Positions 9,119-42,402 of a stretch of 49,223 nucleotides of DNA are shown piece by piece. The DNA is from a phage: the sequence record NC_103567.1; one strand, given 5' to 3'. Position numbers and translations under genes: made by a program. Numbering within the stretch: the stretch's first letter is position 1; every line of letters begins with the position of its first letter. Under the pieces are notes generated by a model. The model searched no databases and was not told where the DNA came from. It was given only the letters and a program-made list of their open reading frames with translations.

Positions 9119-9129
9119 GGGTGAATGCT

Positions 9130-10701
9130 ATGTTGATATGGGAAGATTTAAGCAAGTTAGAAAAGCTGGCTATTAAAGAATTGAGTACACACGATTTTGA
9201 TACTTTCGTTAAAATCTGGTTCCCGATCCAGCAAGGGGAAAAATGGATTCCTAACTGGCATCACCTTTATATCGCAAGAGCGATTGATGAAATTATTGAA
9301 GGTACGCGGAAAGATACGATCTTTAATGTAACTCCAGGCTCAGGTAAGACGGAATTACTTTCTATCCATTTCCCTCCGTATTCTTATTTAAAACTTAATA
9401 AGGTGCGGAACCTAAATATTTCATTTGCCGATACGCTTGTTAAACGAAACAGTAAGCGTGTGCGTGATCTGGTTAATTCGCGAGAATGGCAAGAGCTTTT
9501 CCCTGCAAAAACTGGTACAAGCAAAGATGATGAATTTCAGGTTTTAAATGACGCTGGCAAAGTTCGACTTGAAATGATTAGTAAATCAATGGGCGGTCAA
9601 ATTACTGGTAGCCGTGGCGGTTATATCACTCCTGGTATTTATTCCGGTTGCGTTACGCTTGACGATCCAGAAAAGCCCGATGATATGTTTTCGAAGGTGA
9701 AGCGTGAGCGCGGTCAGATGATAGCGAAGAACACCATTCGATCACGTCGCGCACATTCAGAAACGCCAATTATCGTTATCCAGCAGCGTTTACATGCGCA
9801 GGATATGACATGGTTTCTGATGAATGGCGGAATGGGTATTGAATTTGATCAGATATCAATTCCGGCTATGGTTACAGAGGAGTACGGGAAATCACTTCCT
9901 GATTGGTTGCAGCCGCACTTTGAAAAGGATGTGCTTTCGTCTGAATACATCGTTATTGACGGCGTGAAGTATTATTCTTTTTGGCCTAGCAAGGAAAGCA
10001 TTCATGACTTGAAAGCGCTACGCGATGCGGATTTGTACACGTTCCTTTCTCAGTATCAGCAAGATCCAATTGCTCTTGGAGGTAACGCAATTAACGTTGG
10101 ATGGTTCCAGTATTACGGAACCGGAGAAAAATCAACTATGCCAAAACCGGATCGCTTTGATTATACGTTTATTACAGCAGATACCGCTCAGAAAGAAGGT
10201 GAGCTAAACGACTACAGCGTTTTATGTTATTGGGGCATGTTCAAAGGCCGTATATATTTTATTGACGGTGTGCGCGGAAAATGGGAAGCGCCAATGTTAG
10301 AAACGCAGTTTAAAGCGTTTGTTAAACAGTGCTGGAACCGTAACAAAGAATGCGGAAACTTGCGTAAAATTTACGTGGAAGATAAAGCGAGCGGTACAGG
10401 TTTGATCCAGAATTGCCGCAAAGCATTTCCGATAGAAATTACGCCAGTGCAACGCGATAAAGACAAAGTAACGCGCTGCATGGACGCTCAGCCAGTGATC
10501 AAGAATGGTTATGTTGTATTGCCTGAATCGCATCACATGCTTGCTGAATTTCTGGCAGAGGCGGCGGCATTCACTTATGATGATAGCCATCCTCATGATG
10601 ATATTATGGATAACCTTTTTGATGCGGTTAATATTGAGCTTAACCTTGCTGATAATGCGGTTGATAGAATGAAGCGTTTAGCTGGATTAGCGAAGCGTTA
10701 A
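9130..10701 (+). CDS. terL: terminase large subunit
   Basis: About 523 aa with Walker A-like PGSGKT and the size and position expected for a TerL ATPase-nuclease. Confidence 0.85.
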   Translation: MLIWEDLSKLEKLAIKELSTHDFDTFVKIWFPIQQGEKWIPNWHHLYIARAIDEIIEGTRKDTIFNVTPGSGKTELLSIHFPPYSYLKLNKVRNLNISFADTLVKRNSKRVRDLVNSREWQELFPAKTGTSKDDEFQVLNDAGKVRLEMISKSMGGQITGSRGGYITPGIYSGCVTLDDPEKPDDMFSKVKRERGQMIAKNTIRSRRAHSETPIIVIQQRLHAQDMTWFLMNGGMGIEFDQISIPAMVTEEYGKSLPDWLQPHFEKDVLSSEYIVIDGVKYYSFWPSKESIHDLKALRDADLYTFLSQYQQDPIALGGNAINVGWFQYYGTGEKSTMPKPDRFDYTFITADTAQKEGELNDYSVLCYWGMFKGRIYFIDGVRGKWEAPMLETQFKAFVKQCWNRNKECGNLRKIYVEDKASGTGLIQNCRKAFPIEITPVQRDKDKVTRCMDAQPVIKNGYVVLPESHHMLAEFLAEAAAFTYDDSHPHDDIMDNLFDAVNIELNLADNAVDRMKRLAGLAKR

Positions 10702-10715
10702 TGTGTAAAATCAAA

Positions 10716-10740
10716 GGCTGGAATATTCCGGCCTTTTTTA
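10716..10740 (+). terminator. palindromic hairpin plus T-run (AGGCTGGAATATTCCGGCCT); near-identical to the element at 14331
   Basis: GC-rich stem, AATATT loop, T6; lies between terminase and portal genes. Confidence 0.5.
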
Positions 10741-10754
10741 TTATGGGGGTATTT

Positions 10755-12050
10755 ATGAGCGACAAGGTAAAGGCCATTACTAAAGAAGATGGTTACAACG
10801 AAATTTTCGGATCTAAAGATGGAACGTTTAGGCCAAATGCTTTTTACATGCAAAGTGCGGCATTTAAAACGTTATCGCAATTTTATGAAGAAGATGGAAT
10901 GGCGCGGCGCATTGTCGATGTTATTCCAGAAGAAATGGTGACGCCTGGTTTTAAAGTTGACGGCGTGAAAAATGAAAAGTCTTTTAAATCGCGCTGGGAT
11001 GAATTGCGATTAAACGCTAAAATTATTGATGCGCTTTCATGGTCGCGTTTATTTGGCGGTTCTGCAATTCTTGCTGTTGTTGCTGATAACAGAATGCTGA
11101 AATCACCTGTAAAGCCTGGTGCACAACTTGAAGATATTCGCGTATATGATCGCTATCAGATCACCATTCAGGAACGTGAAACTAATGCGCGGAGTGTTCG
11201 TTACGGTGAGCCGAAACTTTATAAGATCTCACCTGGCGGAGATATACCGGAATTCTTTGTTCATTACTCGCGTATTTGCATCATTGATGGTGAGCGAGTA
11301 TCGAATGAAAAACGCCGTCAAAATGATGGTTGGGGCGCAAGCATTTTAAACAAGCGTTTGATTGAGGCGATTGTTGATTATAACTATTGCCAGGAATTAG
11401 CAACGCAATTGCTACGCCGAAAACAACAAGCAGTATGGAAAGCGCGTGATCTGGCTTTGATGTGCGACGATGAAGAAGGGCGCTACGCGGCGCGTTTGCG
11501 TTTGGCTCAGGTTGATGACGAAAGCGGAGTTGGTAAGGCAATTGGTATTGATGCCACAGATGAAGAATATGAGGTTCTCAATTCTGACGTTTCCGGCGTT
11601 CCAGAGTTCTTACAGGAAAAGATTGATCGAATTGTTGCCCTAACTGGCATTCATGAAATCATCCTTAAAAATAAGAACACTGGCGGAGTTTCAGCGAGTC
11701 AAAACACGGCGCTAGAGACTTTCTATAAGTTGATTGATCGCAAGCGCGTAGAGGATTACAAGCCGATTCTTGAATTCCTTTTGCCGTTCATGATCTCAGA
11801 ATCCGAATGGTCTATTGAATTCGAACCGTTAAGCGTTCCGAGCGATAAGGACAAAGCTGAAATTATGGCTAAGAACGTTGAATCTGTTGTAAAATTGAAA
11901 GCTGAACAGGCAATTAATCTCAAAGAAACAAGAGACACTTTGCGATCCATTTGTCCAGATCTTAAAATCATGGACAATGACAACATTGAATTGCCAGAGC
12001 CGGAAGATTTAGATCCAGAGCCAGGGCAAGAGGGGGGATTGAATAAATGA
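10755..12050 (+). CDS. portal protein
   Basis: About 431 aa directly after TerL in canonical order. Confidence 0.8.
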   Translation: MSDKVKAITKEDGYNEIFGSKDGTFRPNAFYMQSAAFKTLSQFYEEDGMARRIVDVIPEEMVTPGFKVDGVKNEKSFKSRWDELRLNAKIIDALSWSRLFGGSAILAVVADNRMLKSPVKPGAQLEDIRVYDRYQITIQERETNARSVRYGEPKLYKISPGGDIPEFFVHYSRICIIDGERVSNEKRRQNDGWGASILNKRLIEAIVDYNYCQELATQLLRRKQQAVWKARDLALMCDDEEGRYAARLRLAQVDDESGVGKAIGIDATDEEYEVLNSDVSGVPEFLQEKIDRIVALTGIHEIILKNKNTGGVSASQNTALETFYKLIDRKRVEDYKPILEFLLPFMISESEWSIEFEPLSVPSDKDKAEIMAKNVESVVKLKAEQAINLKETRDTLRSICPDLKIMDNDNIELPEPEDLDPEPGQEGGLNK

Positions 12051-12718
12051 TGTTTCCCGATATGACAGAGAGCGACGTTGAAAAGGCGCTTAATGATCTG
12101 GCGGTTGATATCACTGAAAACAATGCTGATGTAGAGGCGGCAATTGCCGCCTTTATGTTGCTGGTTTACGGGTTCGCCGTTAGTGCATACAAATACCACA
12201 CTCGCCAATTTATCAGAATGGCAAAGCAAACAGGAGGTGCAAATAATCGATCCGTTATCCTTCTGATTGGTGGCGTTTACGGAAATATGAATGAACGTTG
12301 GTTCAATTCAAAATACATAACCTGGCGATCACTTATTGAGGCATCAGTAAGTAAATTTGCGTATAATGTGCTTGATGATTGGGAAGTACAACAGCGTTTA
12401 AATGAGTTACGCGAGCAAGCAGAAACAAGAGCGCAGATCCGAAAGCGCCTAAGAAAATATAAGGCGTGGGCTAAAAATAGGGCGTCTGGTTTTGTTGGTT
12501 CGTGGTATTCCGTGTTAATGTATCAACGCGTGGTTGATACCGGAGTTACCCATTATATTTGGCGCACTCAGGAAGATAACAGGGTTAGACCTGAACACGC
12601 TAAATTGGATATGAAACGGATCTCATTGGCAATAAAGCACATATTCCCAGGGCAGGAATATAATTGTCGCTGTTGGGCGCAACCGGATTGGGAAACAGAG
12701 CAAGAGGTATATTTATGA
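12047..12718 (+). CDS. head morphogenesis protein (SPP1 gp7-like minor head protein)
   Basis: 223-aa ORF overlapping the portal stop; canonical position after portal. Confidence 0.65.
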   Translation: MMFPDMTESDVEKALNDLAVDITENNADVEAAIAAFMLLVYGFAVSAYKYHTRQFIRMAKQTGGANNRSVILLIGGVYGNMNERWFNSKYITWRSLIEASVSKFAYNVLDDWEVQQRLNELREQAETRAQIRKRLRKYKAWAKNRASGFVGSWYSVLMYQRVVDTGVTHYIWRTQEDNRVRPEHAKLDMKRISLAIKHIFPGQEYNCRCWAQPDWETEQEVYL

Positions 12719-13824
12719 AGAAGGTGCAACGTTTTGATAGTGTCAGAGTAAAGGCGCATTTTGATGAACACGGCTTTTTAGTGGATCGTCCTATTGTGGC
12801 GCGAATTGGTTTGCAGATTTATCAAACGCCATACGGCGAGCGCAGAGAATTCAGGCCAGCAAGTGAAGTGTTTAAAGCTGATAGCCTGGCGACTTACGCA
12901 GGTAAACCAATCACAGTAGGTCACGTCACCGTAACGCCGGAAAATGCGCGTGATGTTGTAGTTGGTACTTGTTCAGGCGCTGGCATTCCAAATGGGATCG
13001 GAGTTGAAGCGCCTTTGAATATTTACGCAAAGGATGCAATTGAAAGCGCGAAGAAAAAACAAACGGCTGAAATCAGCGTTGGCTATACTTCAATTGATAT
13101 TGATAAGCCAGGTTGGGGGTCTAATGAAACGGGCGAATACATCTTTGAAGAAGATCTAAAAGATGGTGAGCAGCCGCCGAAAGATTGGGTTAAGTTTGAT
13201 GCGCTACAAACAAACATTAGCGTAAACCATATCGCGCTTGTTTTTAAAGGTCGTGCCGGAATTGCAAAATTGAATCTTGATAGCGAGCAGGAATTCCCGT
13301 ATGATACTGACGTTAAATTAAATAAAGAGGACGAAGTTATGACCGTTAAAATTAAACTGGATGGTGCTGTTGAATTTGACGTACCAAAAGAGGTTGCTAC
13401 CTTTATCGAAACCGTAAAGGCAGATGCTGAAAAAGCCAAAACCAAAGCCGACAGCCTGGAGGCAGAGCGTGACGCGCTACAGTCGAAAGTTGACGGCATT
13501 CCGGCGCAGATTGAAGAAGCAGTGAAAAAAGCAAAAGCTGACGCTGATGAACATGCCGCACTGGTCGCTACCGCTTCCGAAGTTGGCGTAAAATGCGACG
13601 GACTAACAGCCAAAGAAATTAAGATCGCATATGTGAAAGAGGTCATGGGTAATGACATTAGCGCAAAGGCTGATGCATATATTGATACCGCTTTTGATAT
13701 CGCGAAAGAATCTGATAAAATGGCGGCTCAACGTATTGCACTGAAAGGCGATTCAGCAAAAGAAAAAGAAGATGGCGCGGATTCTGTTTTAAATCCTTCC
13801 GCGCGTCTGAACAAAGCTAAATAA
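12715..13824 (+). CDS. scaffolding protein, possibly fused to a prohead protease domain
   Basis: C-terminal half is Ala/Lys/Glu-rich predicted coiled coil (AEKAKTKADSLEAERDALQSKV...); located between portal and capsid genes. Confidence 0.6.
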   Translation: MKKVQRFDSVRVKAHFDEHGFLVDRPIVARIGLQIYQTPYGERREFRPASEVFKADSLATYAGKPITVGHVTVTPENARDVVVGTCSGAGIPNGIGVEAPLNIYAKDAIESAKKKQTAEISVGYTSIDIDKPGWGSNETGEYIFEEDLKDGEQPPKDWVKFDALQTNISVNHIALVFKGRAGIAKLNLDSEQEFPYDTDVKLNKEDEVMTVKIKLDGAVEFDVPKEVATFIETVKADAEKAKTKADSLEAERDALQSKVDGIPAQIEEAVKKAKADADEHAALVATASEVGVKCDGLTAKEIKIAYVKEVMGNDISAKADAYIDTAFDIAKESDKMAAQRIALKGDSAKEKEDGADSVLNPSARLNKAK

Positions 13825-24740: not shown

Positions 24741-27700
24741 ATGGTTAAAAATATGATAACTGGCAGTAAGGGCGGTTCATCTAAACCGCACACACCTGTT
24801 GAAATGGAAGATAACTTGATTTCAATTAACAGGATCAGAATTCTTTTAGCTGTTTCTGATGGTGAAGTTGATCCAGACTTTTCATTAAAAGATTTATATT
24901 TTGATGACGTTCCGGTTATGAATCAGGACGGGTCACTAAACTTTCAGAATGTTAAAGCCGAATTCAGACCAGGATCACAAACGCAAGATTATATTCAGGG
25001 ATTCACTGACACGGCGAGTGAGATTACTGTTGCTCGCGATCTGACGGCTGCAACTCCTTATATTATTTCCGTGACTAATAAAAACCTTTCCGCGATCCGT
25101 ATTAAAATTTTAATGCCGCGAGGGTTTACGCAGGAGGATAACGGAGATTTAACAGGCGTTCGCGTTGAATATGCTGTTGATATGGCTGTTGATGGTGCTG
25201 AATATAAAGAGGTTTTGTATGATGTAATTGAAGGTAAAACAATGAGCGGTTACGACAGAAGCCGCCGAATTGATTTACCTGCTTTCAATGAGCGTGTTTT
25301 ATTGCGCGTCCGTCGCCTGACAGATAGCACGTCAGCAAGGGTAACGGATCTGATTAAAATGCAAAGCTATGCTGAAGTTGTAGACGCTAAATTTCGTTAC
25401 CCACTGACTGGTTTAGTATATGTTGAGTTTGACAGCGAATTATTCCCTAATGCGTTGCCGAATATCAGCATTAAGAAAAAATGGAAAATCATTAATGTTC
25501 CGTCAAATTATGATCCTATTTCCCGCACTTACTCAGGGTCATGGGATGGAACCTGGAAAAAGGCATGGAGTAATAACCCTGCTTTTGTTCTGTATGATTT
25601 GATTACCAATCAGCGTTACGGACTCGATCAAAGAGAATTAGGCATCGCGCTTGATAAATGGAGCATTTACGAATGTGCGCAGTATTGCGATCAGATGGTT
25701 CCAGACGGTAAAGGCGGAACAGAGCCGCGCTATCTTTGCGACGTTGTGATCCAGAGCCAGGTAGAAGCGTATCAGCTTGTCCGTGATATTTGCTCAATCT
25801 TTCGAGGAATGAGTTTTTGGAACGGTGAAAGCCTTTCAATTGTGATCGATAAGCCGCGCGATGCGTCATACATCTTTACCAATGACAACGTGGTTAATGG
25901 TGAGTTTACTTACACGTTTGCCAGCGAGAAAAGCATGTACACGCAATGTAACGTGACTTTCGACGACGAACAAAACATGTATCAACAGGATGTTGAGGGA
26001 GTTTTCGAAACGGAGGCGGCGTTACGCTTTGGATATAACAGCACGTCAATAACTGCTATCGGTTGCACTCGACGTAGTGAGGCTAATCGCCGTGGGCGCT
26101 GGATTCTGAAAACCAACGTCAAGAGCACAACAGTAAACTTTGCTACTGGCCTGGAAGGTATGATCCCAACGGTAGGCGATGTAATTGTTGTTTCGGATAA
26201 CTTCTGGTCAAGCGCTTTGACGCTGAATCTATCAGGTCGATTGATGGAGGTTAACGGGTTGCAGGTGTTCACGCCGTTTAAGGTTGACGCAAGAGCGGGT
26301 GATCGCATTCTGGTAAATAAGCCGGATGGTAAGCCAGTTGGTCGAACCATTGCGCGTGTGAGCGATGACGGCAAAACGCTAACGCTAAACACAACGTTTG
26401 GCTTTGACGTTAAGCCGGATGCGGTTTTTGCAATTGAGCGCACAGATATAGCCCAGCAACGCTATGTAGTAACAGGAATAACTAAAGGTGATGGTGATGA
26501 AGAATTTGTATACAACATCACGGCTGTTGAATACGACGCTAACAAGTACGATGAAATTGATTATGGTGTGAACATTGATGATCGCCCTACTTCCATTGTG
26601 CAGCCTGACATTCTGCCAGCACCTGAAAACGTCAAGATCGAATCTTATTCGCGAGTTGTTCAGGGCGCGAGCGTGGAAACAATGCACGTTTCATGGGATA
26701 AAGTTGAATACGCAAGTCTGTATGAAATGCAGTGGCGAAAAGACAATGGCAACTGGAACAATACGCCGCGAACCGCGAACAAGGAAACGGAAGTTGAAGG
26801 TATTTATGCGGGTAACTATCACGTAAGGGTTAGATCTGTTGCGGCTAATGGTTCAGCGTCTGGATGGTCTGCAATAGTAAGCGCAGGATTAACCGGAAAA
26901 GTGGGAGAGCCGGAAAAGCCAATTAACCTTACAGCGTCAGATAATGAGGTTTTCGGAATTCGCGTAAAATGGGGTATGCCGGAGGGAAGCGGAGACACGG
27001 CCTATATAGAGTTGCATCAAGCGCCAAACGGTGCTGATGGTCATCCTATAGTTGACGAAGCAACGCTATTAACGCTTGTTCCGTTCCCGCAATATGAGTA
27101 TTGGCATTCAATACTGCCAGCGGGTCATGTTGTCTGGTACAAGGCAAGGGCAGTTGACAAAATCGGGAATGTGTCTGATTGGACTGACTTTGTGCGCGGC
27201 ATGGCTTCCGACGATACGAGCATTATCACGGATCATATTAAGGTCGATATTGAAAATTCTGATGGATATAAGTGGTTACAGGAAAACGCAATAAAGGCCA
27301 ATGATAAGATCCACAGCACAGCGGAATCAGTGATTGAAAACGCATTAGCGAATGATAAAGATGTGCGACGTATGCGAGTTGAAAACGGCAAGCGTAAAGC
27401 GGAGTTCTTGCAATCGCTGAAACTCATTGCAGACGAAACAGAAGCAAGGGTAACGCAGGTCACTCAAATGAGTGCGCAATTTGACGAGAAATTAACGGCT
27501 CAAAATAGCGAATTGAGAGAGGTAATTGCTAACAGCACTGAAACCATTAGCCAAAGGATTGATCAGCTTACAGCTACGTTTGAGAGCGAAATTGATGGTG
27601 TTAAGCAGGATATCAAAGCACAGATAACTGATGTTAACAAGGCAATCACCAATGAAGCGGAAGCGCGAGCGTCAGCGGATAGGGCGTTATCAACTCAAAT

Positions 27701-28517
27701 TGGTGATACCCAATCAGCGGTTAACCAGAAACTTGATTCTTGGGTTAATGCCGATAGCGTAGGCGCGATGTACGGCGTTAAGTTGGGGTTACGTTACAAC
27801 GGGCAGGAATATAGCGCTGGTATGGCTCTTTCCCTTGTTGGTGACGGATCAGGAGTTAAATCACAATTCCTGTTTGATGCTGGACGATTTGCGATCATAA
27901 ACAACCAACAGAGCGGAGGTTTTACACTACCGTTTGTTGTTGAGAATAATCAGGTGTTTATCAACAGCTTGCTTGTGAAAAATGGCTCTATTGGTAACGC
28001 TCAGATTGCGGATCAGATTAACTCTAACAACTGGAGCAGCGGCGCGGCTGGATGGATGATTAATAAGAATGGTTATGCTGAATTTAACCAGATAACGGTA
28101 AGGGGTACAGTGTACGCAAACGCCGGATCATTCACTGGTAACGTTTACGCTACTGATGGTTGGTTTAGGGGTACTGTTTACGCTGAAAAAATCGAGGGCG
28201 ACGTTGCAAAGGCTGTTGTGCTTGGGTTTAACGGATCGGTTCACATTCCGGCAGTAAACTACGACAGACACCTTGTGATTCCTTATGTTGGTTTGCATGG
28301 CTATACCTATTCAGGCGGTACGTGGGGCGGTGGTACTGTTTGGGTTGATTCATCATATGGCGGTCGCTTGGCTAACGTTCAAGCTACGGCTATGCATGGC
28401 GGTTCAAGTGGATACCTTCTGTTACCAGCGGGTAACGCAACAACGCTTTCATATGGTGGCAACCTGAACCACGCTAACGCGGTTCCAGTATTAACAATAC
28501 TGCTATTCAAAGCATAA
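24741..28517 (+). CDS. tail tip / host specificity protein (lambda J-like central fibre)
   Basis: 1258-aa ORF at the end of the tail block. Confidence 0.8.
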   Translation: MVKNMITGSKGGSSKPHTPVEMEDNLISINRIRILLAVSDGEVDPDFSLKDLYFDDVPVMNQDGSLNFQNVKAEFRPGSQTQDYIQGFTDTASEITVARDLTAATPYIISVTNKNLSAIRIKILMPRGFTQEDNGDLTGVRVEYAVDMAVDGAEYKEVLYDVIEGKTMSGYDRSRRIDLPAFNERVLLRVRRLTDSTSARVTDLIKMQSYAEVVDAKFRYPLTGLVYVEFDSELFPNALPNISIKKKWKIINVPSNYDPISRTYSGSWDGTWKKAWSNNPAFVLYDLITNQRYGLDQRELGIALDKWSIYECAQYCDQMVPDGKGGTEPRYLCDVVIQSQVEAYQLVRDICSIFRGMSFWNGESLSIVIDKPRDASYIFTNDNVVNGEFTYTFASEKSMYTQCNVTFDDEQNMYQQDVEGVFETEAALRFGYNSTSITAIGCTRRSEANRRGRWILKTNVKSTTVNFATGLEGMIPTVGDVIVVSDNFWSSALTLNLSGRLMEVNGLQVFTPFKVDARAGDRILVNKPDGKPVGRTIARVSDDGKTLTLNTTFGFDVKPDAVFAIERTDIAQQRYVVTGITKGDGDEEFVYNITAVEYDANKYDEIDYGVNIDDRPTSIVQPDILPAPENVKIESYSRVVQGASVETMHVSWDKVEYASLYEMQWRKDNGNWNNTPRTANKETEVEGIYAGNYHVRVRSVAANGSASGWSAIVSAGLTGKVGEPEKPINLTASDNEVFGIRVKWGMPEGSGDTAYIELHQAPNGADGHPIVDEATLLTLVPFPQYEYWHSILPAGHVVWYKARAVDKIGNVSDWTDFVRGMASDDTSIITDHIKVDIENSDGYKWLQENAIKANDKIHSTAESVIENALANDKDVRRMRVENGKRKAEFLQSLKLIADETEARVTQVTQMSAQFDEKLTAQNSELREVIANSTETISQRIDQLTATFESEIDGVKQDIKAQITDVNKAITNEAEARASADRALSTQIGDTQSAVNQKLDSWVNADSVGAMYGVKLGLRYNGQEYSAGMALSLVGDGSGVKSQFLFDAGRFAIINNQQSGGFTLPFVVENNQVFINSLLVKNGSIGNAQIADQINSNNWSSGAAGWMINKNGYAEFNQITVRGTVYANAGSFTGNVYATDGWFRGTVYAEKIEGDVAKAVVLGFNGSVHIPAVNYDRHLVIPYVGLHGYTYSGGTWGGGTVWVDSSYGGRLANVQATAMHGGSSGYLLLPAGNATTLSYGGNLNHANAVPVLTILLFKA

Positions 28518-28531
28518 AAGGAGGTAAATCA

Positions 28532-28570
28532 ATGCCCTGGCTTAACGGTCGGGGCATTTTGTTTTCTTTT
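28532..28570 (+). terminator. terminator-like hairpin with long loop plus T-rich tail after the J-like gene
   Basis: ATGCCC...GGGCAT stem followed by TTTTGTTTTCTTTT. Confidence 0.45.
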
Positions 28571-28577
28571 GTTCTAC

Positions 28578-28675
28578 GGTGTTCACAACTTAATCCGGCG
28601 TAGAATTGAGAACGTTATGACAACAAAAAGAACAAATTAAATATCTATATAATACATACACTTAGAGTTTAATTA
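28578..28675 (+). repeat. copy B of the duplicated ~100-bp control-region element
   Basis: Aligns with 138-235 and is followed by similar TATATA-rich and GT-rich blocks. Confidence 0.7.
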
Positions 28676-28921
28676 TTATTATATATATCTATTTGTATCC
28701 TTCTTGTTTCCATTGTTCTCTATGGTTTGTAGTGGTTGTGTGTTTTGTGTTGGTTGATGGTTATATATCACATGGTATGTATTTATATATGGTATGCGGC
28801 GTAAATGCGTGAACAATGGAACACAAAAACAACAATTAGTAAAATCATAAACTTACGATGTGATTTTGTTGTCAATGCTAGTTGTAAACGTATTCAAAAC
28901 AAAAAGAACACTTAAATGGTA

Positions 28922-28949
28922 TTGACTACATGAAACATTCACATATAAT
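28922..28949 (+). promoter_or_regulatory. strong sigma70-like early promoter (TTGACT-N16-TATAAT)
   Basis: Near-consensus hexamers about 30 bp upstream of the exonuclease gene. Confidence 0.65.
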
Positions 28950-28977
28950 GCAGACATACCAACGAGAGGATGAATAA

Positions 28978-31607: not shown

Positions 31608-33980
31608 TTACTTAGCAATCTGAATAAACATTGATTGCATTTCCTCGATCATCTTTTTCATTTCTGCTACTTCATTTTTTAGCTCATTGATTTCATCTTG
31701 TTGCTTCTGAATGGTTTCATTCTGCTTATCTGAATCATCAATCATTTCATTAATTGCGTTAACCAAAAGAGCAGTTACACCGCCATAGCTAACGCCTAAA
31801 ATTTCAGAATCAGATACCTTGTAAACCGCTTCCGGCAAAACAGTCTGAACATCTTGAGCTATTACGCCAGCTTCCTCAGAGTAGAAAGAATTTTCATCTT
31901 CTTCTAGGCTATTGCGCTTAAAGTAAGTGTATCCCTTAATTGATTTAACTTTATCTTTGGCGCTTTTAATCTCCTTTAGATTTGCCTTTAGTCGAATATC
32001 AGATGTATTAACCCATTGAACAGCGCTTGCATAACCAGCATCATTAAAAGTGTATGATGTACCTCTTACGTTTAGGTGAGCTTCGCAACCTCCAGCGCCA
32101 TATCTGGCAACATCTATACCAAAAACCCAATCATAACCCCACCTTACAACCTTAACAACGTTAACGGCTACATCATCGCCTGGAAGTTCAACAAGCATAC
32201 CAGCGGCGCGATCACGCCATGCAGTAAAAGCACCACCCTCAACATGCCCACCTATAAAGCAATTCGCACCACCCCTCCTAACACCTTCAACATAAGCAAA
32301 ACGTGCATCTTCTGGAGCAAATGATTGAATAGTTCTGTATGCAACATTGCCACTCTTTGTAAATGCAAACATCACTTGATTATCAGCAATAGCTTGAAGA
32401 ATGCCATCTCCATTTTGCCTAAATCCAGTATCAGTATCTCCAATTACTATAGAGTTACTACCAAGAGCATTACCAATCCCCCTACCGATTGTTATTGAGT
32501 TGTAATTCAGCGCGTTGCCACTTTCATCAAACTGATAATAGTTTGTGTCGCCACCTTCTCTAGTTACTTGAATAGTTGCCTTTGCAATCCCACCCTGAAT
32601 TTCGTTGTAAACCCTTGAATACGAAATCTGTACTCCTTCTGCATTTTTGTTTAACAAATAAAGTATGCCGGAGTTTGCAGAGTTTTTTTCTGTTAGGCTT
32701 ATTCCTCTAAAAACAGGAATGTCAGTTTCACCAATGCCAAAATTACTCCTTGCTTGCCCTATGCTTTGAGCGCCAGTGCCTCCTCGTTCGATGTGTAATG
32801 GTTTGATGTTTCCATAATCATCTTGAACACCCCACACACCATTGTTAGCTACAAGCATATTTAGTTTTCCATCAGGTGATTTTATGGAGTTAAAATCTCC
32901 TGGTGTTTCGCTAGTAATGCAAAAAACACCTTGCACACGAAAGTTTTTTCTTGCACCTTCAATATTTTCCGCACCAGTGCCGCCAGCACCAACAGAAAGA
33001 GCGGATGTGCTGTTATCGCTATTTCTTGCAACTCGCCACTCGCCGTTGTTTGCGATCCGTAATTCATAAGTCCATGCAGGGTTACGAAATGAGTTATAAT
33101 CACCTGGATTTTGCCCCTTAACTGAATTAACAGCCTCAACTTTCAGCGCCTCCCTTGCTAAATCTTTATTAGCAAGATCATTAAGATTCTGATCCTTATG
33201 CAGAAGGTTTTCAGGGTTAACTTGTTGTGCCCATTGGCGAGCTTCATCACGCGCAGTTTCAGCTCCAGCCTTTGCAGAGTCGGCGGCAATCTTTGATTGT
33301 TCAGCGGCAAGTTGTGATTCCTTTGCTGCATCGCGAGCATTAACAGCCTCGTTTTTAATTGATCCAATTTCAGCAACGGCGCTATCTTTTATTTGTTGCG
33401 TCTGCGTTTTTATTGCGTCAGTGTCTGCCTTAATCTGATTGGTTTCATAAACAGCAGCATCCTTAATCCGTTGAGTTTCTGCAATCGCAGTATCTTTAAT
33501 TTGCGTAGTCTCAGAAACAGCGGCATCCTTAATAGCTTGCGTGTCGTTTTTTAATTGCTCAGTTGCGGCGCGATCTGCATCCGTTTTTTGTGCGGAAGAC
33601 TCAGCGCGAGCAACAAGATCCTGTAATGTTTTAAGGTCAAAGTTTTTGAAGAATTCAATTGCTTCCTCAATAACCGTTTCTTTACTTTGGTAATATCTCA
33701 GCGTTTCCGCTACATCTTGCGCCATTCCATCGACAGTTAGCGAGTCATTCAACAGGATTACATAATTTCCGTTTGCTACTGGCTCGCCGTCAGTCTGGAT
33801 CGCTTTCATTTCCGTGTCGCTTACAATATCGCTGATAACCGCCAGCTTTAAAGGCGTGGTTAAAAAAACGATTGTTGCGCCAGTGCGAATAAGAGAAAGC
33901 GGCTCACGCCATTTTGTGCCAGTACCAGTGATAACGCCTTGTGCGTCCATTGCAGCCGTACCAGTGCGATATAAAGCCAT
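31608..33980 (-). CDS. tail fibre with C-terminal intramolecular chaperone (peptidase S74-like) domain
   Basis: 790 aa; internal ~11-aa repeats (IKDAAVSETTQIKDTAIAETQRIKDAAV...); C-terminal SDIRLKANLKEI...coiled coil resembles the auto-cleaving chaperone domain. Confidence 0.7.
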   Translation of the reverse strand: MALYRTGTAAMDAQGVITGTGTKWREPLSLIRTGATIVFLTTPLKLAVISDIVSDTEMKAIQTDGEPVANGNYVILLNDSLTVDGMAQDVAETLRYYQSKETVIEEAIEFFKNFDLKTLQDLVARAESSAQKTDADRAATEQLKNDTQAIKDAAVSETTQIKDTAIAETQRIKDAAVYETNQIKADTDAIKTQTQQIKDSAVAEIGSIKNEAVNARDAAKESQLAAEQSKIAADSAKAGAETARDEARQWAQQVNPENLLHKDQNLNDLANKDLAREALKVEAVNSVKGQNPGDYNSFRNPAWTYELRIANNGEWRVARNSDNSTSALSVGAGGTGAENIEGARKNFRVQGVFCITSETPGDFNSIKSPDGKLNMLVANNGVWGVQDDYGNIKPLHIERGGTGAQSIGQARSNFGIGETDIPVFRGISLTEKNSANSGILYLLNKNAEGVQISYSRVYNEIQGGIAKATIQVTREGGDTNYYQFDESGNALNYNSITIGRGIGNALGSNSIVIGDTDTGFRQNGDGILQAIADNQVMFAFTKSGNVAYRTIQSFAPEDARFAYVEGVRRGGANCFIGGHVEGGAFTAWRDRAAGMLVELPGDDVAVNVVKVVRWGYDWVFGIDVARYGAGGCEAHLNVRGTSYTFNDAGYASAVQWVNTSDIRLKANLKEIKSAKDKVKSIKGYTYFKRNSLEEDENSFYSEEAGVIAQDVQTVLPEAVYKVSDSEILGVSYGGVTALLVNAINEMIDDSDKQNETIQKQQDEINELKNEVAEMKKMIEEMQSMFIQIAK

Positions 33981-35823: not shown

Positions 35824-37797
35824 ATGATTCCTAACATTGAAAAGCAGATTGCAGATCTGGGAGAGGAAAGGATTAAGGCAATCCAGAAGCGTTTCACGGT
35901 TGGTGAGATTGTCCCGTATGAATACCAATGCGTTGCTTACGCTGAAATTGCAAAGCGCTTGAGTAAGTATGTTGATCCGTTTTTCGTTAAAGCGGCGGTG
36001 TCGGCAGGTAAAACAATCATCTTTGCTATGGTTGCGGCTCAGTGCAGGAAAATGGGATTGAAAGCGTTATTTCTGGCGCGTCAATCTGAAATTGTGGATC
36101 AGGATTCAAAAGAGATTAGCGCCTTTGGTGTTCCGAATTCCGTTTATTGCGCTGGCCTGAATACCAAAAGCGCTTATTTCCCGATTGTTGTAGGATCGGA
36201 AGGTACTGTAATTGGCGGATTGAATAAGGCGTTAGGTGATTACGTCCCACAGGTTTTAGGTATAGATGAATGTCATCAAGTCAACTGGAATGATATTGTT
36301 GAAGCCGAGGAAAACGGCGAAAGCATAGAGCAAATGATGACACCGAAAGGTGAACCAGTTGAAGGCAATCCGTTGCTGATTGGTTCAGGCCGCGCACAAT
36401 ACACCATTATCATTGCAGAAATGCGCCGCCGTTGTCTTGAGACTTACGGTCATCAGTTGCGTATATTTGGAATGACAGGATCGGAATATCGCGGAATTGA
36501 GCCGATACTTGTCGAAGATAAAAGAATTCCTGGGTTTTGGCGTGAGCAGATCACAAACATTGATACTGATTACCTGGTAAAATTTGGTTCAGTTGTTCCC
36601 ACTTATTTTGGCAATGTTGGTGATTTGGGTTACGACTTATCAGAATTTACGCCAGTGAATGAATTTGGCGTTGCTGATTATGACCAGAAGCAATTAAAGG
36701 CCATGAGTGACAAGATTCACCAATCAGGAACCATGACGCAGAAAATAATGCAGATGGTTCACGAGGTGATGAAAAACCGCTTGTGCGCTCTTGTTACTTG
36801 CGCTGACGAAAGGCACTGCAAAGAGGCAGCGGCGGCGCTTCCTCCTGGCACGAAATATCACATTATTACCGGAAAAACTGGAGAGAAACAGAGGCGCTTA
36901 TGGCTTGAGGATGCTTATGAAGGCAGGGTGAAATATATTTTTCAGGTTCAGGCGCTAACAACTGGCGTGAACGTGCCGCCGTGGGATACTTCTGTTATTT
37001 TGCGTAAGATCGGAAGTCTCACGCTATTAACTCAGCTTTTGGGGCGTGGTATGCGTCAATTAAAAACATACCATAAAGAAGTATTGGGGATGCACAAAAC
37101 GGATCACCTTGTTTTGGATTTTTCAGGCACGATGTTTGAAATGGGTAATTTGTATTTCGATCCGATGTTAGAGCAAGCGCAATTCCAGTTACGTAAATCA
37201 CAGGACAAAGATCCGAAATATTGCCCGATTTGCGGTACAGAAAATTCATTCTATGCTCGCCGTTGCATTAATGAGGATGAAAACGGAAATCGTTGTGAAC
37301 ATTTCTGGACGTTCCAGGAATGTGAGGATCAGATTGATGACCGCACAAAGAAAGTTATTGTAAAAGGTTGCGGCGCAAAAAATGACGTTGCGGCGCGTGT
37401 ATGCCGTTGCTGTAATGTTCAGTTACGCGATCCAAATGATAACTTATCCGGCAAGATGTACCGTAAAAACGATTGGTGCGACGTGTTAGATTTTAATGTG
37501 ACGCTGACAAAAAACCAGGCTGGCGTAATATTCTGCTACACGTTACGTGATAGTGGCGGCGTAGAATTCAGGGCATACGAAAAATATTTCCCTGAATCAG
37601 AACACAAGATATGTAAAACGCTTTGGACAAAGGCGGTTAGAACACATGTTATAGATCGCCAAGCCGCAAACTTTATGATCGCTTGCCGCAATGCAATTAA
37701 GATCATGAGTTATGCGGGGCAAATATTGCCGCCAAAACGTGTTACCCATCGCAAGAACACAAAGAAAGAAGATTTGATCGCACAGAAGGAGTTTTAA
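35824..37797 (+). CDS. superfamily-2 ATP-dependent helicase with C-terminal zinc-ribbon motifs
   Basis: 657 aa; Walker A VSAGKT, DExH-like LGIDECHQV; C-terminal CPICG...C..C and CGAKN...CRCC pairs. Confidence 0.8.
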   Translation: MIPNIEKQIADLGEERIKAIQKRFTVGEIVPYEYQCVAYAEIAKRLSKYVDPFFVKAAVSAGKTIIFAMVAAQCRKMGLKALFLARQSEIVDQDSKEISAFGVPNSVYCAGLNTKSAYFPIVVGSEGTVIGGLNKALGDYVPQVLGIDECHQVNWNDIVEAEENGESIEQMMTPKGEPVEGNPLLIGSGRAQYTIIIAEMRRRCLETYGHQLRIFGMTGSEYRGIEPILVEDKRIPGFWREQITNIDTDYLVKFGSVVPTYFGNVGDLGYDLSEFTPVNEFGVADYDQKQLKAMSDKIHQSGTMTQKIMQMVHEVMKNRLCALVTCADERHCKEAAAALPPGTKYHIITGKTGEKQRRLWLEDAYEGRVKYIFQVQALTTGVNVPPWDTSVILRKIGSLTLLTQLLGRGMRQLKTYHKEVLGMHKTDHLVLDFSGTMFEMGNLYFDPMLEQAQFQLRKSQDKDPKYCPICGTENSFYARRCINEDENGNRCEHFWTFQECEDQIDDRTKKVIVKGCGAKNDVAARVCRCCNVQLRDPNDNLSGKMYRKNDWCDVLDFNVTLTKNQAGVIFCYTLRDSGGVEFRAYEKYFPESEHKICKTLWTKAVRTHVIDRQAANFMIACRNAIKIMSYAGQILPPKRVTHRKNTKKEDLIAQKEF

Positions 37798-37799
37798 AA

Positions 37800-38207
37800 A
37801 TGGTTACTGATAAAGGCGATTATCTGGAGTATTACGACAAATCAGATCCAGATGACAGAAAAGAGGAAGCGCACCAGGTTGATTCTTATTCATGGTTAAC
37901 ATATGAGTTTCCAATGTGGCTTGTTTGGCACACTAAAAACGAAGGGAAGAAAACAATAGGCACAGCAGTAAAGGATCAGCAAGCAGGTGTAAAAAAAGGA
38001 GTAAGCGACATTCTAATCCTGACTGGTTTTATTGGCTGCAAATATGCATTCATTGCAATTGAGCTTAAACGAGCCAACAAGAAAGGAACTAAAGTAAGCC
38101 AGGAACAAAGGGAATTCTTGCGCCGCGTTAGGGAATGCGGAGGATTTGCCGCAGTATGCTATGGTGTAGATCAAGTAAAATTGGCTATCGCAGACGCTAC
38201 AAAATAG
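37800..38207 (+). CDS. VRR-NUC-like PD-(D/E)xK nuclease
   Basis: 135 aa; DILILTGF...IAIELKRAN fits a D...ExK core; immediately follows the helicase. Confidence 0.6.
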   Translation: MVTDKGDYLEYYDKSDPDDRKEEAHQVDSYSWLTYEFPMWLVWHTKNEGKKTIGTAVKDQQAGVKKGVSDILILTGFIGCKYAFIAIELKRANKKGTKVSQEQREFLRRVRECGGFAAVCYGVDQVKLAIADATK

Positions 38208-38223
38208 CACTTTTTGTTAAAAC
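38203..38223 (+). promoter_or_regulatory. 21-bp motif, class I
   Basis: AATAGCACTTTTTGTTAAAAC then GGCGC...GCGCC and CATAAT. Confidence 0.6.
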
Positions 38224-38278
38224 AGGCGCGACGGAATGCGCCATAATGCACACATCAGAACGAAACGGAGAATTAACC

Positions 38279-38557
38279 ATGAAAAAGATGTTATCAGTAG
38301 TTGCTTTATCACTTGCCATTGTTGGTTGCATGGATAAACCAAAAACATATATTTGCGGAAATGAAGCGTTTGAGGTTACAAGCGAATATATGAAAGTTGT
38401 GCAAGGTAAAAGCACAGGCGTTGTAATGGATAATATCAGCAAAAATCAATATAAGCTGTTTACGCCAATTGGAACGGCTTTTTACACTGTTAACGATAGC
38501 ACCATTGATATTAAAGTTGGCGTTTATCAGAACACTCTAACTTGCGAGGTAAAATAA
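38279..38557 (+). CDS. lipoprotein (possible superinfection-exclusion protein)
   Basis: ORF track 38135-38557; internal start gives MKKMLSVVALSLAIVGC with lipobox; GGAGAA RBS. Confidence 0.6.
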   Translation: MKKMLSVVALSLAIVGCMDKPKTYICGNEAFEVTSEYMKVVQGKSTGVVMDNISKNQYKLFTPIGTAFYTVNDSTIDIKVGVYQNTLTCEVK

Positions 38558-38558
38558 A

Positions 38559-39299
38559 ATGGCTAAGGATTTTCAGGACAAAGCAACCATTGATACTTTT
38601 GAGCCGGAAATGGATTTTCATGAACTGCAACACGGCAGATATTCAGATATTGCTTTACGTTCAGGCGGTCATTATCAGCCAGTTAGAGAAAACCCATTAT
38701 TTAAGGTTAGCGGCAACCGTTATGCAGGAAGTAAAACGCCGGACGTAGTGCGCGACTTGTGGGAAACTCCAGATGAAATTGTTGAATACCTTGCTGAACG
38801 TTACGGCAAATATGATCTTGACGCAGCAGCAACGGAAGATAATAAAAAATGCGATAAATTTTACAGCAAAGAAACAAACTGCTTAAAGCGTTGGTGGGGT
38901 AGCAATAAGCACGTTTGGTTAAATCCACCATACAGCAATCCAGATCCATTTATCAAAAAAGCAATTGAGCAGATGGAACACGGAAACCAGATTGATATTT
39001 TACTTCCGGCTGATAATTCAACTGCATGGTTTAGTGACGCACAAAAACATGCGGCAGAAATTATCTGGATTACTGGTGAAACCTGGAAGGATGAAGAAGG
39101 TCGCGAATATTCCAGAACTGGTCGAGTGGCGTTTATTTCTGGCATGACAGGTGAGCCAGTTAGCGGAAACAATAAAGGTAGTGTAATTTTTATCATGCGC
39201 CAATTGGAAGAAGGTGAGCAACAGCAAACGCACTATGTGAAGATTAGCGACATTTGCCCTTCCGTAAAAAATAAACGAGCCAAAGCGCGGAGTATTTAA
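38559..39299 (+). CDS. dam: DNA N6-adenine methyltransferase (phage Dam-like)
   Basis: 246 aa; VWLNPPYS carries the (D/N)PPY catalytic motif of N6-adenine methyltransferases. Confidence 0.8.
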   Translation: MAKDFQDKATIDTFEPEMDFHELQHGRYSDIALRSGGHYQPVRENPLFKVSGNRYAGSKTPDVVRDLWETPDEIVEYLAERYGKYDLDAAATEDNKKCDKFYSKETNCLKRWWGSNKHVWLNPPYSNPDPFIKKAIEQMEHGNQIDILLPADNSTAWFSDAQKHAAEIIWITGETWKDEEGREYSRTGRVAFISGMTGEPVSGNNKGSVIFIMRQLEEGEQQQTHYVKISDICPSVKNKRAKARSI

Positions 39300-39300
39300 A

Positions 39301-39531
39301 ATGAGCATTCGATTAGCCGATCACATGAAATGGGATTTATTTGTCGGTATGACAATTCGCTTACTTGATAAGCATGGTTATAACGATGATAAAATGGAGT
39401 TGATAAACTGCCTGGATATGACATTTGACGAAATCAAAGTTGCGCCTTTGTACATGTGGGAAAGAAAAATTGAGCACGACCTGATACAATACAAACGCAG
39501 AGAGGGCGCACGATTTTTCAATGTGAAATAG
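39301..39531 (+). CDS. hypothetical protein
   Basis: 76-aa ORF directly after dam. Confidence 0.55.
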   Translation: MSIRLADHMKWDLFVGMTIRLLDKHGYNDDKMELINCLDMTFDEIKVAPLYMWERKIEHDLIQYKRREGARFFNVK

Positions 39532-39547
39532 CACTTTTTGTTAAAAC
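39527..39547 (+). promoter_or_regulatory. 21-bp motif, class I
   Basis: AATAGCACTTTTTGTTAAAAC then CCCGC...GCGGG and TATTAT. Confidence 0.6.
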
Positions 39548-39602
39548 CCGCTACGGCGGGTTTTGTATTATGTGCTTAACGGAAAACAAGAGGATTTCAA
39601 AA

Positions 39603-39767
39603 ATGAAAATCGTAAACGTCGAATACTTCAAAGATGCGCAATGGCTGGCTAAAGAATCATTGTTTATGCTTGATCGCAAAAATCCAAAGGTTATTGCACA
39701 AATACTTTGGAATGACGCAATGGAGTTACTTAAAAAGGCTTACGGTTATGAAAGTGAAGAAAGGTAA
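39603..39767 (+). CDS. hypothetical small protein
   Basis: ORF track 39570-39767; internal ATG 39603 has AAGAGGA RBS. Confidence 0.5.
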   Translation: MKIVNVEYFKDAQWLAKESLFMLDRKNPKVIAQILWNDAMELLKKAYGYESEER

Positions 39768-39990
39768 AAAGGAAACTTGGGAGCTTGCTAAAAAAGGCGG
39801 TCTTGATGAAGGGATCGCCAAAATAGCAAAGTATTTCGATATTAAAGACGTGTGCGTTATTGTTGGTGACGAAATGGCGTATGTTGAAGAAAAGCCGCGA
39901 CGTGTTCACCGTGTTCCAGCAATACCAACAACAATCGACTATAAAGAAGTTATTAACAAAACCAAAGAGCAGAAGAAATATTACAAATGA
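39748..39990 (+). CDS. hypothetical protein
   Basis: ORF track 39634-39990; likely start at internal ATG 39748 (MKVKKGKK...). Confidence 0.4.
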   Translation: MKVKKGKKETWELAKKGGLDEGIAKIAKYFDIKDVCVIVGDEMAYVEEKPRRVHRVPAIPTTIDYKEVINKTKEQKKYYK

Positions 39991-40073
39991 GATACATTTC
40001 TGTTATTTTGTTGCCGCCTGTTATCGCTTGGGTTATTATGTACGCCGTTGTTATGAATTAAGAGGATGTTAAA

Positions 40074-41300: not shown

Positions 41301-41525
41301 ATGAGAGACTTTCTTTTAATGGCGCAAAACTCTTTCGGAGGTGCAACGGTAGTTGGATCTTTTACTGGTGAGTTTTTGCTTGCACTTGCTACGTTTATTT
41401 TGTTCGCTATTTTCGGCTGTTGGGGCGCATGGCTGAAATGGCGTGATAGTAAAGCGATCCGAGAGGCTTTAGATTCAGGGGATTTAAAAACGGCGCTTAA
41501 TCTACGGCAGAAAGAGAGGGTGTAA
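41301..41525 (+). CDS. holin (pinholin-like, two transmembrane helices)
   Basis: 74 aa with two hydrophobic helices and a charged C-terminus; immediately upstream of the endolysin. Confidence 0.7.
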
Positions 41526-42016
41526 TGACAATCAAGAAAGGTATAGCCGCCACCGTCACAGGGGCGGCTTTAATGTTGGCATCGCCTTTGATTGAAGAAA
41601 TTGAGGGCGTAAAGTATAAGCCTTACAAGGATATTGCTGGAATCTGGACGGTATGCCACGGCATTACCGGAAAGGATGTGATTCTTGGAAAGGAATATAC
41701 CAGGCGAGAATGTGACGCGCTATTAGCAAAACACATGAAAGTAGCGGCTGACGCTGTTGATAAGGCGGTTAAGGTTGAAATTCCTTTATCAATGCGAGCG
41801 GCTCTATACTCATTCACTTTTAATGCTGGTACTGGCGCGTTTCGTAAGTCAACCATGCTGAAAAAGATCAACAATGGTGATCTATGGGGCGGTTGTGGTG
41901 AGCTATGGAACTGGACATATTACCGGAACCCTAAAACTGGTAAAAAGGAAAAATCAAGAGGATTGAAGAACCGCCGCGCCGTCGAATATAAATATTGCGT
42001 AAGGGATCTTAAATGA
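41525..42016 (+). CDS. SAR endolysin (lysozyme)
   Basis: 163 aa; N-terminal weakly hydrophobic [18 protein letters not shown] then [24 protein letters not shown], resembling phage P21-type SAR lysozymes. Confidence 0.8.
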
Positions 42017-42402
42017 AAAAGAAATTAATGGCTGTTTTGATGTGCGTTATGCTTTCCGGTTGTTCTGCGTCGAGCTTGTTACCTGGCCTGATTGGTAGCA
42101 AGCCCGATATAACAGCACAGGCAGGATCTGAAAATGTGAAACAAACTGTTGGTGTAACTGCAAAGCATGATACATCAAGCAAGCAGGAAACCACATTTAA
42201 AGAATCGGCTGTTGGAAAGGTTGACACGTCGAATAAAAAACAGGTGAGCACTTCAAGCATTAAGGCAGATAACATCACAGCGGAAAGAATAGAGATCCGA
42301 AATAATGATGGTCTTAATGTTCCGGCAATCGCAATGGGTATATTGATGTTTATTGCGGGTATGCTGGCAGGGTGGGCACTTAAACGTAACAAGGCGGCAT
42401 AA
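42013..42402 (+). CDS. unimolecular spanin
   Basis: 129 aa; N-terminal lipoprotein signal [17 protein letters not shown] and C-terminal helix [18 protein letters not shown], the architecture described for the T1 unimolecular spanin. Confidence 0.7.

Follow-up and report, generated by a model that had tools for sequence, protein, structure and literature searches.

A family of small lipoproteins encoded between the nuclease and Dam genes of T1-like phages and its possible role in the cell envelope

The lipoprotein gene and its expression signals

Sequence record NC_103567.1 (49,223 nucleotides; this whole stretch of DNA is hereafter referred to as the window) is derived from a phage and contains, between the genes for a VRR-NUC nuclease and a Dam methyltransferase, the gene for a lipoprotein with a 92-aa precursor, which is the subject of this report (Table 1). 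The initial annotation had presented this gene as a candidate superinfection-exclusion gene, possibly a counterpart of the receptor-blocking outer-membrane lipoproteins known from T1-like phages. The position given there, between the nuclease and Dam genes and outside the lysis cassette, agrees with the gene map, in which the cassette lies 3 kb downstream of the lipoprotein gene. Over positions 37000-40000, the window matches Salmonella phage vB_SeTS_UALMA_PCST1 at 100% identity, phSE-2, phSE-5, Citrobacter phage Stevie, and others at 99.5-99.9%, and coliphage TLS at 95%. Judging from its sequence, the phage is T1-like and belongs to the genus Tlsvirus (Drexlerviridae, Tempevirinae), in which the characterised members of the group use TolC. 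The same region also matches the record of Streptococcus phage MBBL140 (OR786094.1; 93% identity) and approximately 19 'Campylobacter phage' records, which are probably host mislabels or contaminating T1-like phages.

The precursor begins with MKKMLSVVALSLAIVGC, followed by MDKPK in the mature part, and cleavage is expected ahead of Cys17. The signal peptide (MKKMLSVVALSLAIVG), which is kept in all homologues, consists of an n-region with two Lys residues (MKK), a hydrophobic core of 12 residues (MLSVVALSLAIV), and the lipobox I-V-G-C. All of 25 close and 17 divergent homologues share G16 and C17; the lipobox Cys is conserved down to 25-30% identity, and the MKK start together with the lipobox is conserved down to 25% identity. 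LPAM_1 gave weak matches in 6 of the 17 family members. A six-frame scan of the 49 kb for lipoprotein signals detected only two ORFs, the 92-aa gene and that for the unimolecular spanin, and the signal of the former is therefore more than a chance occurrence. In Escherichia coli lipoproteins, Asp at position +2 after the lipidated Cys specifies retention in the inner membrane (the Lol rule). This position is occupied by Met in the window protein and by Met, Ser, Gly, Asn, Ala, or other Asp-free variants in the 25 close and 17 divergent sequences, and the inner leaflet of the outer membrane is thus the predicted destination of the protein. The signal, the conserved Cys17, and the absence of Asp at +2 support a genuine lipoprotein with predicted outer-membrane sorting.

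The gene is present in 272 phage records, and its product shows a full-length match to PHROG 7420 ('unknown function'; E = 3.9e-53), although the family has no Pfam entry. Pairwise dN/dS ratios of approximately 0.19-0.26 indicate that the gene is under purifying selection, which is several-fold more relaxed than that on the flanking nuclease (0.04-0.09) and Dam (0.03-0.08) genes. Several public records place the start codon too far upstream, namely those of TLS gp60 (140 aa; L001 7135-7557), Stevie gp32 (133 aa; L002 4157-4558), and KP36 gp58 (109 aa; L003 39000-39329), whereas BASEL records annotate the 92-aa form. Such over-long annotations hide the signal peptide, and one of these records is named 'putative adhesin'. 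The public annotation of the longer ORF and the open upstream frame in the window would be compatible with a true product that is the longer, cytoplasmic protein of 133 or 140 aa as annotated in Stevie and TLS, or with a silent ORF, but the probability of this is practically negligible. In-frame stops occur at -6, -21, -27, and -36 relative to the ATG in several homologues, the 133- and 140-aa versions overlap the nuclease gene, and the whole promoter-like module described below, including GGAG 8 nt before the ATG, would lie within the supposed extension. The conservation of the MKK start and the lipobox, the use of the 92-aa form in BASEL, and the purifying selection point in the same direction. 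The gene is thus confirmed to be real, with 38279 as the correct start and the 133- and 140-aa forms being wrong; the 92-aa lipoprotein and its start had been correctly recognised in the initial annotation.

The upstream region contains one of 10 copies of a 22-bp direct repeat (AAATAGCACTTTTTGTTAAAAC) found in the window (0.01 expected), each of which is co-oriented with the local genes. In all 10 copies, the repeat is followed, in the same order, by a variable spacer (usually a hairpin), a -10-like hexamer located 22 nt after TTGnTA, a leader (approximately cgaaacgaaac), GGAG, approximately 8 nt, and ATG. The repeat is located approximately 76 nt before the ATG in these modules, and exactly 76 nt in the case of 38279. 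The same module precedes the homologous genes in KP36, ESCO41, K50, Henu7, L038, L060, and L089, and the leader is kept in every homologue examined. In the re-annotation of TLS, 18 intergenic 21-nt repeats were described approximately 76 nt upstream of start codons, and their function was left as an open question. A consensus scan detected no standard sigma-70 site ahead of the lipoprotein gene, and because the spacing between TTGnTA and the -10-like hexamer is 22 nt, the module is not a canonical sigma-70 promoter; a standard promoter of this type was thus rejected. Rfam and tRNA scans of the window gave no match.

No terminator-like site was detected between the lipoprotein gene and position 39542. 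As dam starts immediately downstream, it is probably co-transcribed with the lipoprotein gene, which would open the dam transcription unit as its first gene. The hairpin in the spacer of the next module, at 39526, also acts as the terminator of the unit ahead of it.

Table 1. Features of the window that are related to the lipoprotein gene
Feature	Position	Strand	Remarks
Lipoprotein gene	38279..38557	+	ATG at 38279, stop TAA at 38555-38557; 92 codons plus stop
Signal peptide, residues 1-16	38279..38326	+	From sequence
Lipobox IVGC	38318-38329	+	From sequence
Mature lipoprotein, residues 17-92	38327..38554	+	76 aa, approximately 8.5 kDa, pI 6.3; acylation site Cys17
Cys26	38354-38356	+	Strand 1 of the predicted barrel
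Cys89	38543-38545	+	Just after strand 8
VRR-NUC nuclease gene	37800..38207	+	Left border of the slot; Pfam PF08774, E = 1.2e-8
22-bp direct-repeat element	38202..38223	+	Overlaps the VRR-NUC stop codon; opens the promoter-like module
Spacer hairpin GGCGC-gacggaat-GCGCC	38225..38242	+	Within the module; sequence, minimum free energy fold, and hairpin spacers in other module copies
-10-like hexamer CATAAT	38242..38247	+	22 nt after TTGTTA; alignment of ten modules and homologous upstream regions
Ribosome-binding site GGAG	38267..38270	+	8 nt before ATG; preceded by the conserved leader cgaaacg
Dam methyltransferase gene	38559..39299	+	Bounds the slot on the right; begins 2 nt past the lipoprotein stop codon; Pfam PF05869, E = 2.3e-62
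Terminator-like hairpin	39542..39565	+	Ends the lipoprotein-dam-gp62 unit; inside the next repeat module
Copies of the direct repeat	1620, 3970, 6489, 30032, 38202, 39526	+	
Copies of the direct repeat	42698, 45542, 47907, 49085	-	
Lysis cassette	41301-42402		
Unimolecular spanin gene	42013-42402		
C-terminal extension of the J-like tail-tip protein (gene 24741-28517)	28131..28517	+	Presumed TolC-binding domain; covered by 64 phage records; literature
Gap downstream of gpJ	28518..28977	.	460 bp, no ORF of 45 aa or more; receptor-binding/exclusion genes are carried there by T1, Rtp, ESCO41, Henu7, and IsaakIselin

Predicted structure and comparison with known proteins

In the AlphaFold2 model generated with the family alignment, residues 21-92 (pLDDT 93-97) form eight short antiparallel strands (residues 22-26, 29-33, 37-42, 49-54, 57-62, 65-71, 75-80, and 83-88) arranged in an up-and-down barrel, with a 5-residue tether between the barrel and the lipid anchor. 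The mature lipoprotein is therefore predicted with high confidence to be an eight-stranded beta-barrel, which would represent a new structure of the barrel type. Residues G16, C17, Y24, C26, G27, Y58, and C89 are invariant among the 25 close homologues and the wider set of 17, and a disulfide bond between Cys26 and Cys89 is likely to join the two ends of the predicted barrel beside the lipid anchor.

A profile search of 1.84 billion representative proteins yielded 11 matches, i.e. ten family members (approximately 90-115 aa) and one spurious match. Thirteen weak repeat matches of the family profile to P0043, a 3231-aa LapA/RTX adhesin, were judged to be a spurious similarity of beta-rich repeats. 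Both contigs of distant members that were read have the gene directly upstream of dam; one is a 50-kb T1-like contig (L089), which also has VRR-NUC upstream, and the other a 3.2-kb fragment starting at the lipoprotein gene (L088). By sequence comparison, the lipoprotein is the founding member of a hitherto undescribed family that was detected in T1-like phages alone, and this family is a new one within a known kind, that of the small phage envelope lipoproteins. In this restriction, it differs from Cor and Rtp45, whose relatives occur widely in phage groups that are unrelated but have a receptor in common.

A homology search against receptor-blocking lipoproteins, which had been suggested as a check in the initial annotation, aligned the signal peptide only. 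Searches of Pfam, PHROGs, NCBIfam, PADLOC, and PDB sequences, supplemented by hhalign, matched known proteins of this kind via the signal peptide alone: an alignment of Cor and Llp matched the family at residues 1-23 (hhalign; probability 4% against Llp alone), and the match to PHROG 1119 (Cor/Llp; E = 0.0024) was limited to residues 1-43. Llp (PDB 7QJF and 8A60) was absent from the fold-search matches of the predicted barrel. PF24052 (Rtp45) gave no match at E values up to 1 with the window protein or up to 10 with the 17 members, whereas the positive controls ESCO41_00072 and the slot protein of L054 were detected at 1e-39 and 1e-29, respectively. The proposal that the protein is a counterpart of Cor by descent is thus not borne out. 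A literature search for the accessions of the lipoprotein and for TolC-blocking phage lipoproteins found nothing.

Llp (T5) and Cor (T1, phi80, and N15) are FhuA-blocking lipoproteins of the lytic cycle that, like the 92-aa family, have 58-76 mature residues, a short Pro-containing tether after the lipidated Cys, and one Cys approximately 8-10 residues past the anchor that is paired in position with a Cys located 2-4 residues from the C-terminus. Both groups face the periplasm from the outer membrane, as predicted or shown. In contrast, the Cor/Llp genes lie beside the receptor-binding/gpJ locus and are linked to FhuA, whereas the 92-aa gene is located 9.8 kb from gpJ and occurs in phages using TolC, YncD, or OmpC. 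Rtp45 (PF24052; PDB 9RPS), which blocks LptDE, is likewise a small outer-membrane lipoprotein of T1-like phages, but combines a local Cys30-Cys38 bond with a long hairpin entering the LptD lumen, in contrast to the predicted closed barrel of the 92-aa lipoprotein, and shares no sequence match with it. Furthermore, Rtp45 relatives always occur together with an Rtp44-like receptor-binding protein (in 9 of the 10 loci encoding the latter), whereas the 92-aa family tracks no receptor module; the Rtp44-like protein was found in none of the 32 IMG/VR loci that contain the family and a visible upstream region.

Among functionally annotated structures, the best-scoring neighbours of the predicted barrel were members of the MliC/PliC/PhiA/ACP fold, with scores in a range shared with avidins and lipocalins. 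This fold is an eight-stranded antiparallel barrel of similar size, found in lipoproteins or periplasmic proteins and containing one disulfide. An MliC/PliC-like inhibitor of peptidoglycan hydrolases would act either on the phage's own SAR endolysin, thereby setting the timing of lysis, or on the muralytic activity of incoming phages, the latter having an analogue in exclusion by T4 Spackle. The common predicted design (lipoprotein or periplasmic barrel, 70-90 aa, one disulfide) and the ranking of PhiA as the top Foldseek match in the PDB are in line with such a function, as is a non-lipidated secreted variant encoded between the nuclease and Dam genes of another T1-like phage (L083), whose Cys pair appears similar by eye only (YDCD...LQCE). 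We nevertheless consider it very improbable. None of the 17 family members matches the Pfam MliC entry, and the 5-residue tether is much shorter than that of MliC. T1, KP36, ESCO41, and L089 are annotated with a similar endolysin of the phage-lysozyme type, yet many T1-like phages have no lipoprotein gene. MliC and PliC further differ from the lipoprotein in carrying the SGxxY motif, which is needed for lysozyme binding in proteins of this type, and in belonging to PF09864; neither was found in the 92-aa lipoprotein, in which the nearest sequence (I-G-T-A-F-Y) is spaced incorrectly and lacks Ser. The motif is missing from PhiA as well, which was reported to neither bind nor inhibit SagA or hen egg-white lysozyme in vitro.

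Occupants and history of the nuclease-Dam slot

The interval between the nuclease and dam genes (the slot; positions 38208-38558 in the window) was surveyed in 80 T1-like loci from IMG/VR that were retrieved through the nuclease gene. The 92-aa lipoprotein family occupies the slot in 41 loci, an Rtp45-like lipoprotein in four, a 34-aa membrane peptide (MKNFLWVIAS...) in six, and other genes in 10; the slot is empty (90 bp or less) in the remaining 19. Most of the products in the 'other' category have signal peptides or membrane anchors. They include secreted proteins of approximately 100 aa (L031, L050, and L083) and pairs of an approximately 150-aa anchored protein and an approximately 87-aa membrane protein (L016, L024, L025, and L043). 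In T1, the slot spans 68 bp, with the nuclease gene, an annotated terminator, and dam in succession, and Cor is encoded after gpJ. On this gene content, the slot is a hot spot for small envelope proteins of T1-like phages.

The Rtp45-like occupants bear most directly on the exclusion hypothesis. According to cryo-electron microscopy, Rtp45 binds LptDE from the periplasmic side and distorts the surface loops needed by the receptor-binding protein. The gene for ESCO41_00072, which is 87% identical to Rtp45, adjoins that for its receptor-binding protein. In L052, L054, L074, L076, and Klebsiella Webervirus NJS3 (L054, L074, L076, and NJS3 being TAH8-type), the Rtp45 homologue is found instead in the slot, and an Rtp44-like receptor-binding protein is encoded after a short gpJ, approximately 10 kb away (in NJS3, i.e. 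L090, the Rtp44-like and Rtp45-type genes are located at 908-1864 and 11462-11689, respectively). An Rtp45-like slot occupant is thus accompanied by an Rtp44-like protein beside gpJ in four of four loci as well as in NJS3, suggesting that these phages target LptD. Where E. coli phages encode an Rtp44-like receptor-binding protein, the lipoprotein gene is located beside it and the slot is empty. The slot can thus house a gene of an exclusion family that remains matched to its receptor module, and this provides the best support for the exclusion role proposed in the initial annotation; the part of that proposal which links the lipoprotein to the receptor fares less well, as the family does not track receptor use.

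The history of the lipoprotein gene differs from that of its neighbours. Between Tlsvirus and Webervirus-W1, the lipoproteins are 75-77% identical with a dS of approximately 0.7, whereas the nucleases are 55-57% identical with saturated dS and the Dam proteins 60-62% identical. The lipoproteins of Henu7 and IsaakIselin are 88-90% identical to that of the window, and the nuclease of Henu7 is 60% identical. Because the lipoprotein is more alike across genera than the products of its flanking genes, the gene has evidently moved between lineages infecting different host genera, and this movement in turn implies a target that would either be common to the Enterobacteriaceae or belong to the phages. 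The gene has the features of a moron or accessory cassette, namely its own module, variable presence, and a history unlike that of its flanks. The slot is empty in L036; the receptor-binding protein of phage NBD2 is the same as that of Henu7.

Receptor use and possible targets

Family members occur in phages with different terminal receptors. Proteins 96% identical to that of the window are found in TLS, LL5, and DanielBernoulli, which use TolC (experimental). The protein of IsaakIselin (Bas10), which uses YncD (experimental), is 90% identical and 98% similar, and that of Henu7, for which YncD is predicted (its receptor-binding protein is 98.6% identical to that of IsaakIselin), is 88% identical. 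A 64% identical protein is found in the Webervirus GH-K3, which uses OmpC as a secondary receptor (experimental); with respect to receptor use in this genus, NPat and BMac have also been reported to need OmpK36. As a 90% identical and 98% similar protein almost certainly binds the same partner, this partner would not be each carrier's own receptor. Accordingly, the lipoprotein is probably not a simple blocker of the receptor of its own phage, and the corresponding claim in the initial annotation is unlikely to hold as a general description; exclusion as such would still be a reasonable function. In Webervirus, two alleles (approximately 76 and 63% identity to the window protein) are each found with at least two unrelated gpJ C-termini, and no co-variation between lipoprotein alleles and gpJ C-termini was found.

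It was also considered whether the family marks phages in which the receptor domain is integrated into gpJ and a separate locus is missing. This applied to Tlsvirus, KP36-type Webervirus, and the K50 phage but was rejected because ESCO41, L089, L071, Henu7, and IsaakIselin possess both the family gene and a separate locus. In ESCO41 and L089, a canonical lipoprotein is encoded beside the receptor-binding protein in addition to the 92-aa family gene; canonical exclusion-type genes are also found next to the receptor-binding protein in the family carriers Henu7 and IsaakIselin, the latter having its own three-gene locus after a short gpJ.

A more specific alternative is that the lipoprotein binds TolC at the interface of the outer membrane and the periplasm and thereby keeps the TLS-type gpJ extension from binding. 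In Tlsvirus, it would take the place of the absent post-gpJ exclusion gene and, in carriers using YncD or OmpC, exclude competing TolC phages. The surface loops of TolC are short and its periplasmic tunnel is long and closed, which makes it difficult to envisage how a periplasmic binder would gain access to the surface. TolC-targeting T1-like phages have been reported to have no receptor-binding/exclusion locus of the usual kind after gpJ, and the window is indeed geneless there; to this extent, the proposal of an exclusion gene located elsewhere gains support. Moreover, all three phages with experimental TolC dependence carry the lipoprotein gene, as do all nine IMG/VR T1-like contigs with a TLS-type gpJ extension, and the short tether and end-tying Cys pair resemble those of Llp, in which the Cys11-Cys58 bond constrains the termini. 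On the other hand, IsaakIselin and Henu7 have 88-90% identical proteins together with their own post-gpJ locus while using, or being predicted to use, YncD; the family is common in Webervirus, for which OmpK36/OmpC is reported as the secondary receptor; it was not found outside T1-like phages; and no copy is present in the visible 16 kb of a 107-kb element that has a gpJ tip of the TLS type. We therefore regard TolC-specific blocking as quite unlikely.

The lipoprotein may also serve in the envelope without excluding phages, e.g. by countering a host envelope defence, altering vesiculation or outer-membrane stability, or tuning the unimolecular spanin. This would suit an accessory gene that evolves faster than its neighbours (dN/dS of 0.2 compared with 0.03-0.09), is exchanged between genera, and is limited to T1-like phages, which share this unusual spanin, and no similarity to any characterised protein was found. 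However, there is no positive evidence for any specific alternative of this type, and the sole slot occupant belonging to a characterised family is the Rtp45-like exclusion lipoprotein. Such a role is considered unlikely.

Tentatively, and well short of a firm assignment, we infer as the most likely reading that the lipoprotein is an accessory exclusion or envelope factor acting on a receptor-independent target. It would reside at the periplasmic face of the outer membrane and serve there in envelope conversion or, more probably, in exclusion; its target would be the same whatever receptor the carrier phage uses, and it would not be a cognate mask of that phage's own receptor. The target may be an entry step shared by T1-like phages, e.g. 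the tail-tip or tape-measure proteins emerging through the outer membrane, or alternatively one fixed envelope component. Because the family is restricted to T1-like phages, unlike the widely spread Cor and Rtp45 relatives, a target in T1-like infection is tentatively preferred over a host receptor. In a bolder form, which seems unlikely, the protein would be the first outer-membrane-anchored non-masking exclusion lipoprotein, blocking a shared post-adsorption step, e.g. by capturing tail-tip or tape-measure proteins upon their emergence at the periplasmic side. A block of this kind would explain the movement of the cassette between genera, its indifference to the receptor module, and its confinement to T1-like phages.

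Exclusion after adsorption is known from other phages, namely through the lipoprotein Ltp of Streptococcus phage TP-J34, gp15 of HK97, and Imm and Sp of T4. These are envelope accessory proteins that block related phages independently of the receptor, which fits the receptor-independent distribution of the lipoprotein. As they are located in the cytoplasmic membrane or free in the periplasm and not in the outer membrane, they are functional analogues only, and no sequence or fold relation to the 92-aa lipoprotein was detected.

Several points weigh against a role as a receptor-independent accessory factor. The lipoprotein showed neither homology nor a significant fold match to any of the exclusion proteins known, and no experiment on it or any homologue was found in the literature. 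The sharing of the slot with Rtp45 homologues is circumstantial, and at least one slot protein, that of L049, has no signal peptide. The presence of the gene in nine of nine contigs with TLS-type gpJ may reflect a link to TolC in Tlsvirus, and the proposed post-adsorption target is purely inferred.

Structural studies have explained how Llp of T5 blocks FhuA and how Rtp45 blocks LptD, and nothing comparable was found in the literature for T1-like phages that have a TolC-binding tail tip and no usual exclusion locus. The 92-aa lipoprotein is the only exclusion candidate in such genomes. If it excludes phages, the range of those excluded would show whether small lipoproteins act beyond receptor masking; if it has no such activity, it would be one more conserved hypothetical phage lipoprotein. 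The slot, in which a relocated Rtp45 homologue matches a receptor-binding protein encoded 10 kb away, is a place to mine for exclusion genes, which matter in therapy phages, as cross-exclusion affects the design of cocktails.

Two further observations concern receptor modules. The YncD-type locus ends with a gene for a 110-112-aa protein (Henu7 gp63, L139 46207-46545; bas10_0024, L141 1099-1431), and Henu7 gp63 has a cleavable non-lipoprotein signal peptide, making it a candidate cognate exclusion protein of a different kind. The element with a TLS-type tip mentioned above is a 106.8-kb IMG/VR contig with a ParA-like gene (L100), which encodes a 1462-aa J-like protein (6002-13025) whose terminal domain shares 72% identity with the TLS-type extension and, after it, a lateral fibre similar to that at 31608-33980 of the window. 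This phage is unrelated and probably plasmid-like, and the presumed TolC-binding tip has thus apparently been exchanged between phage families.

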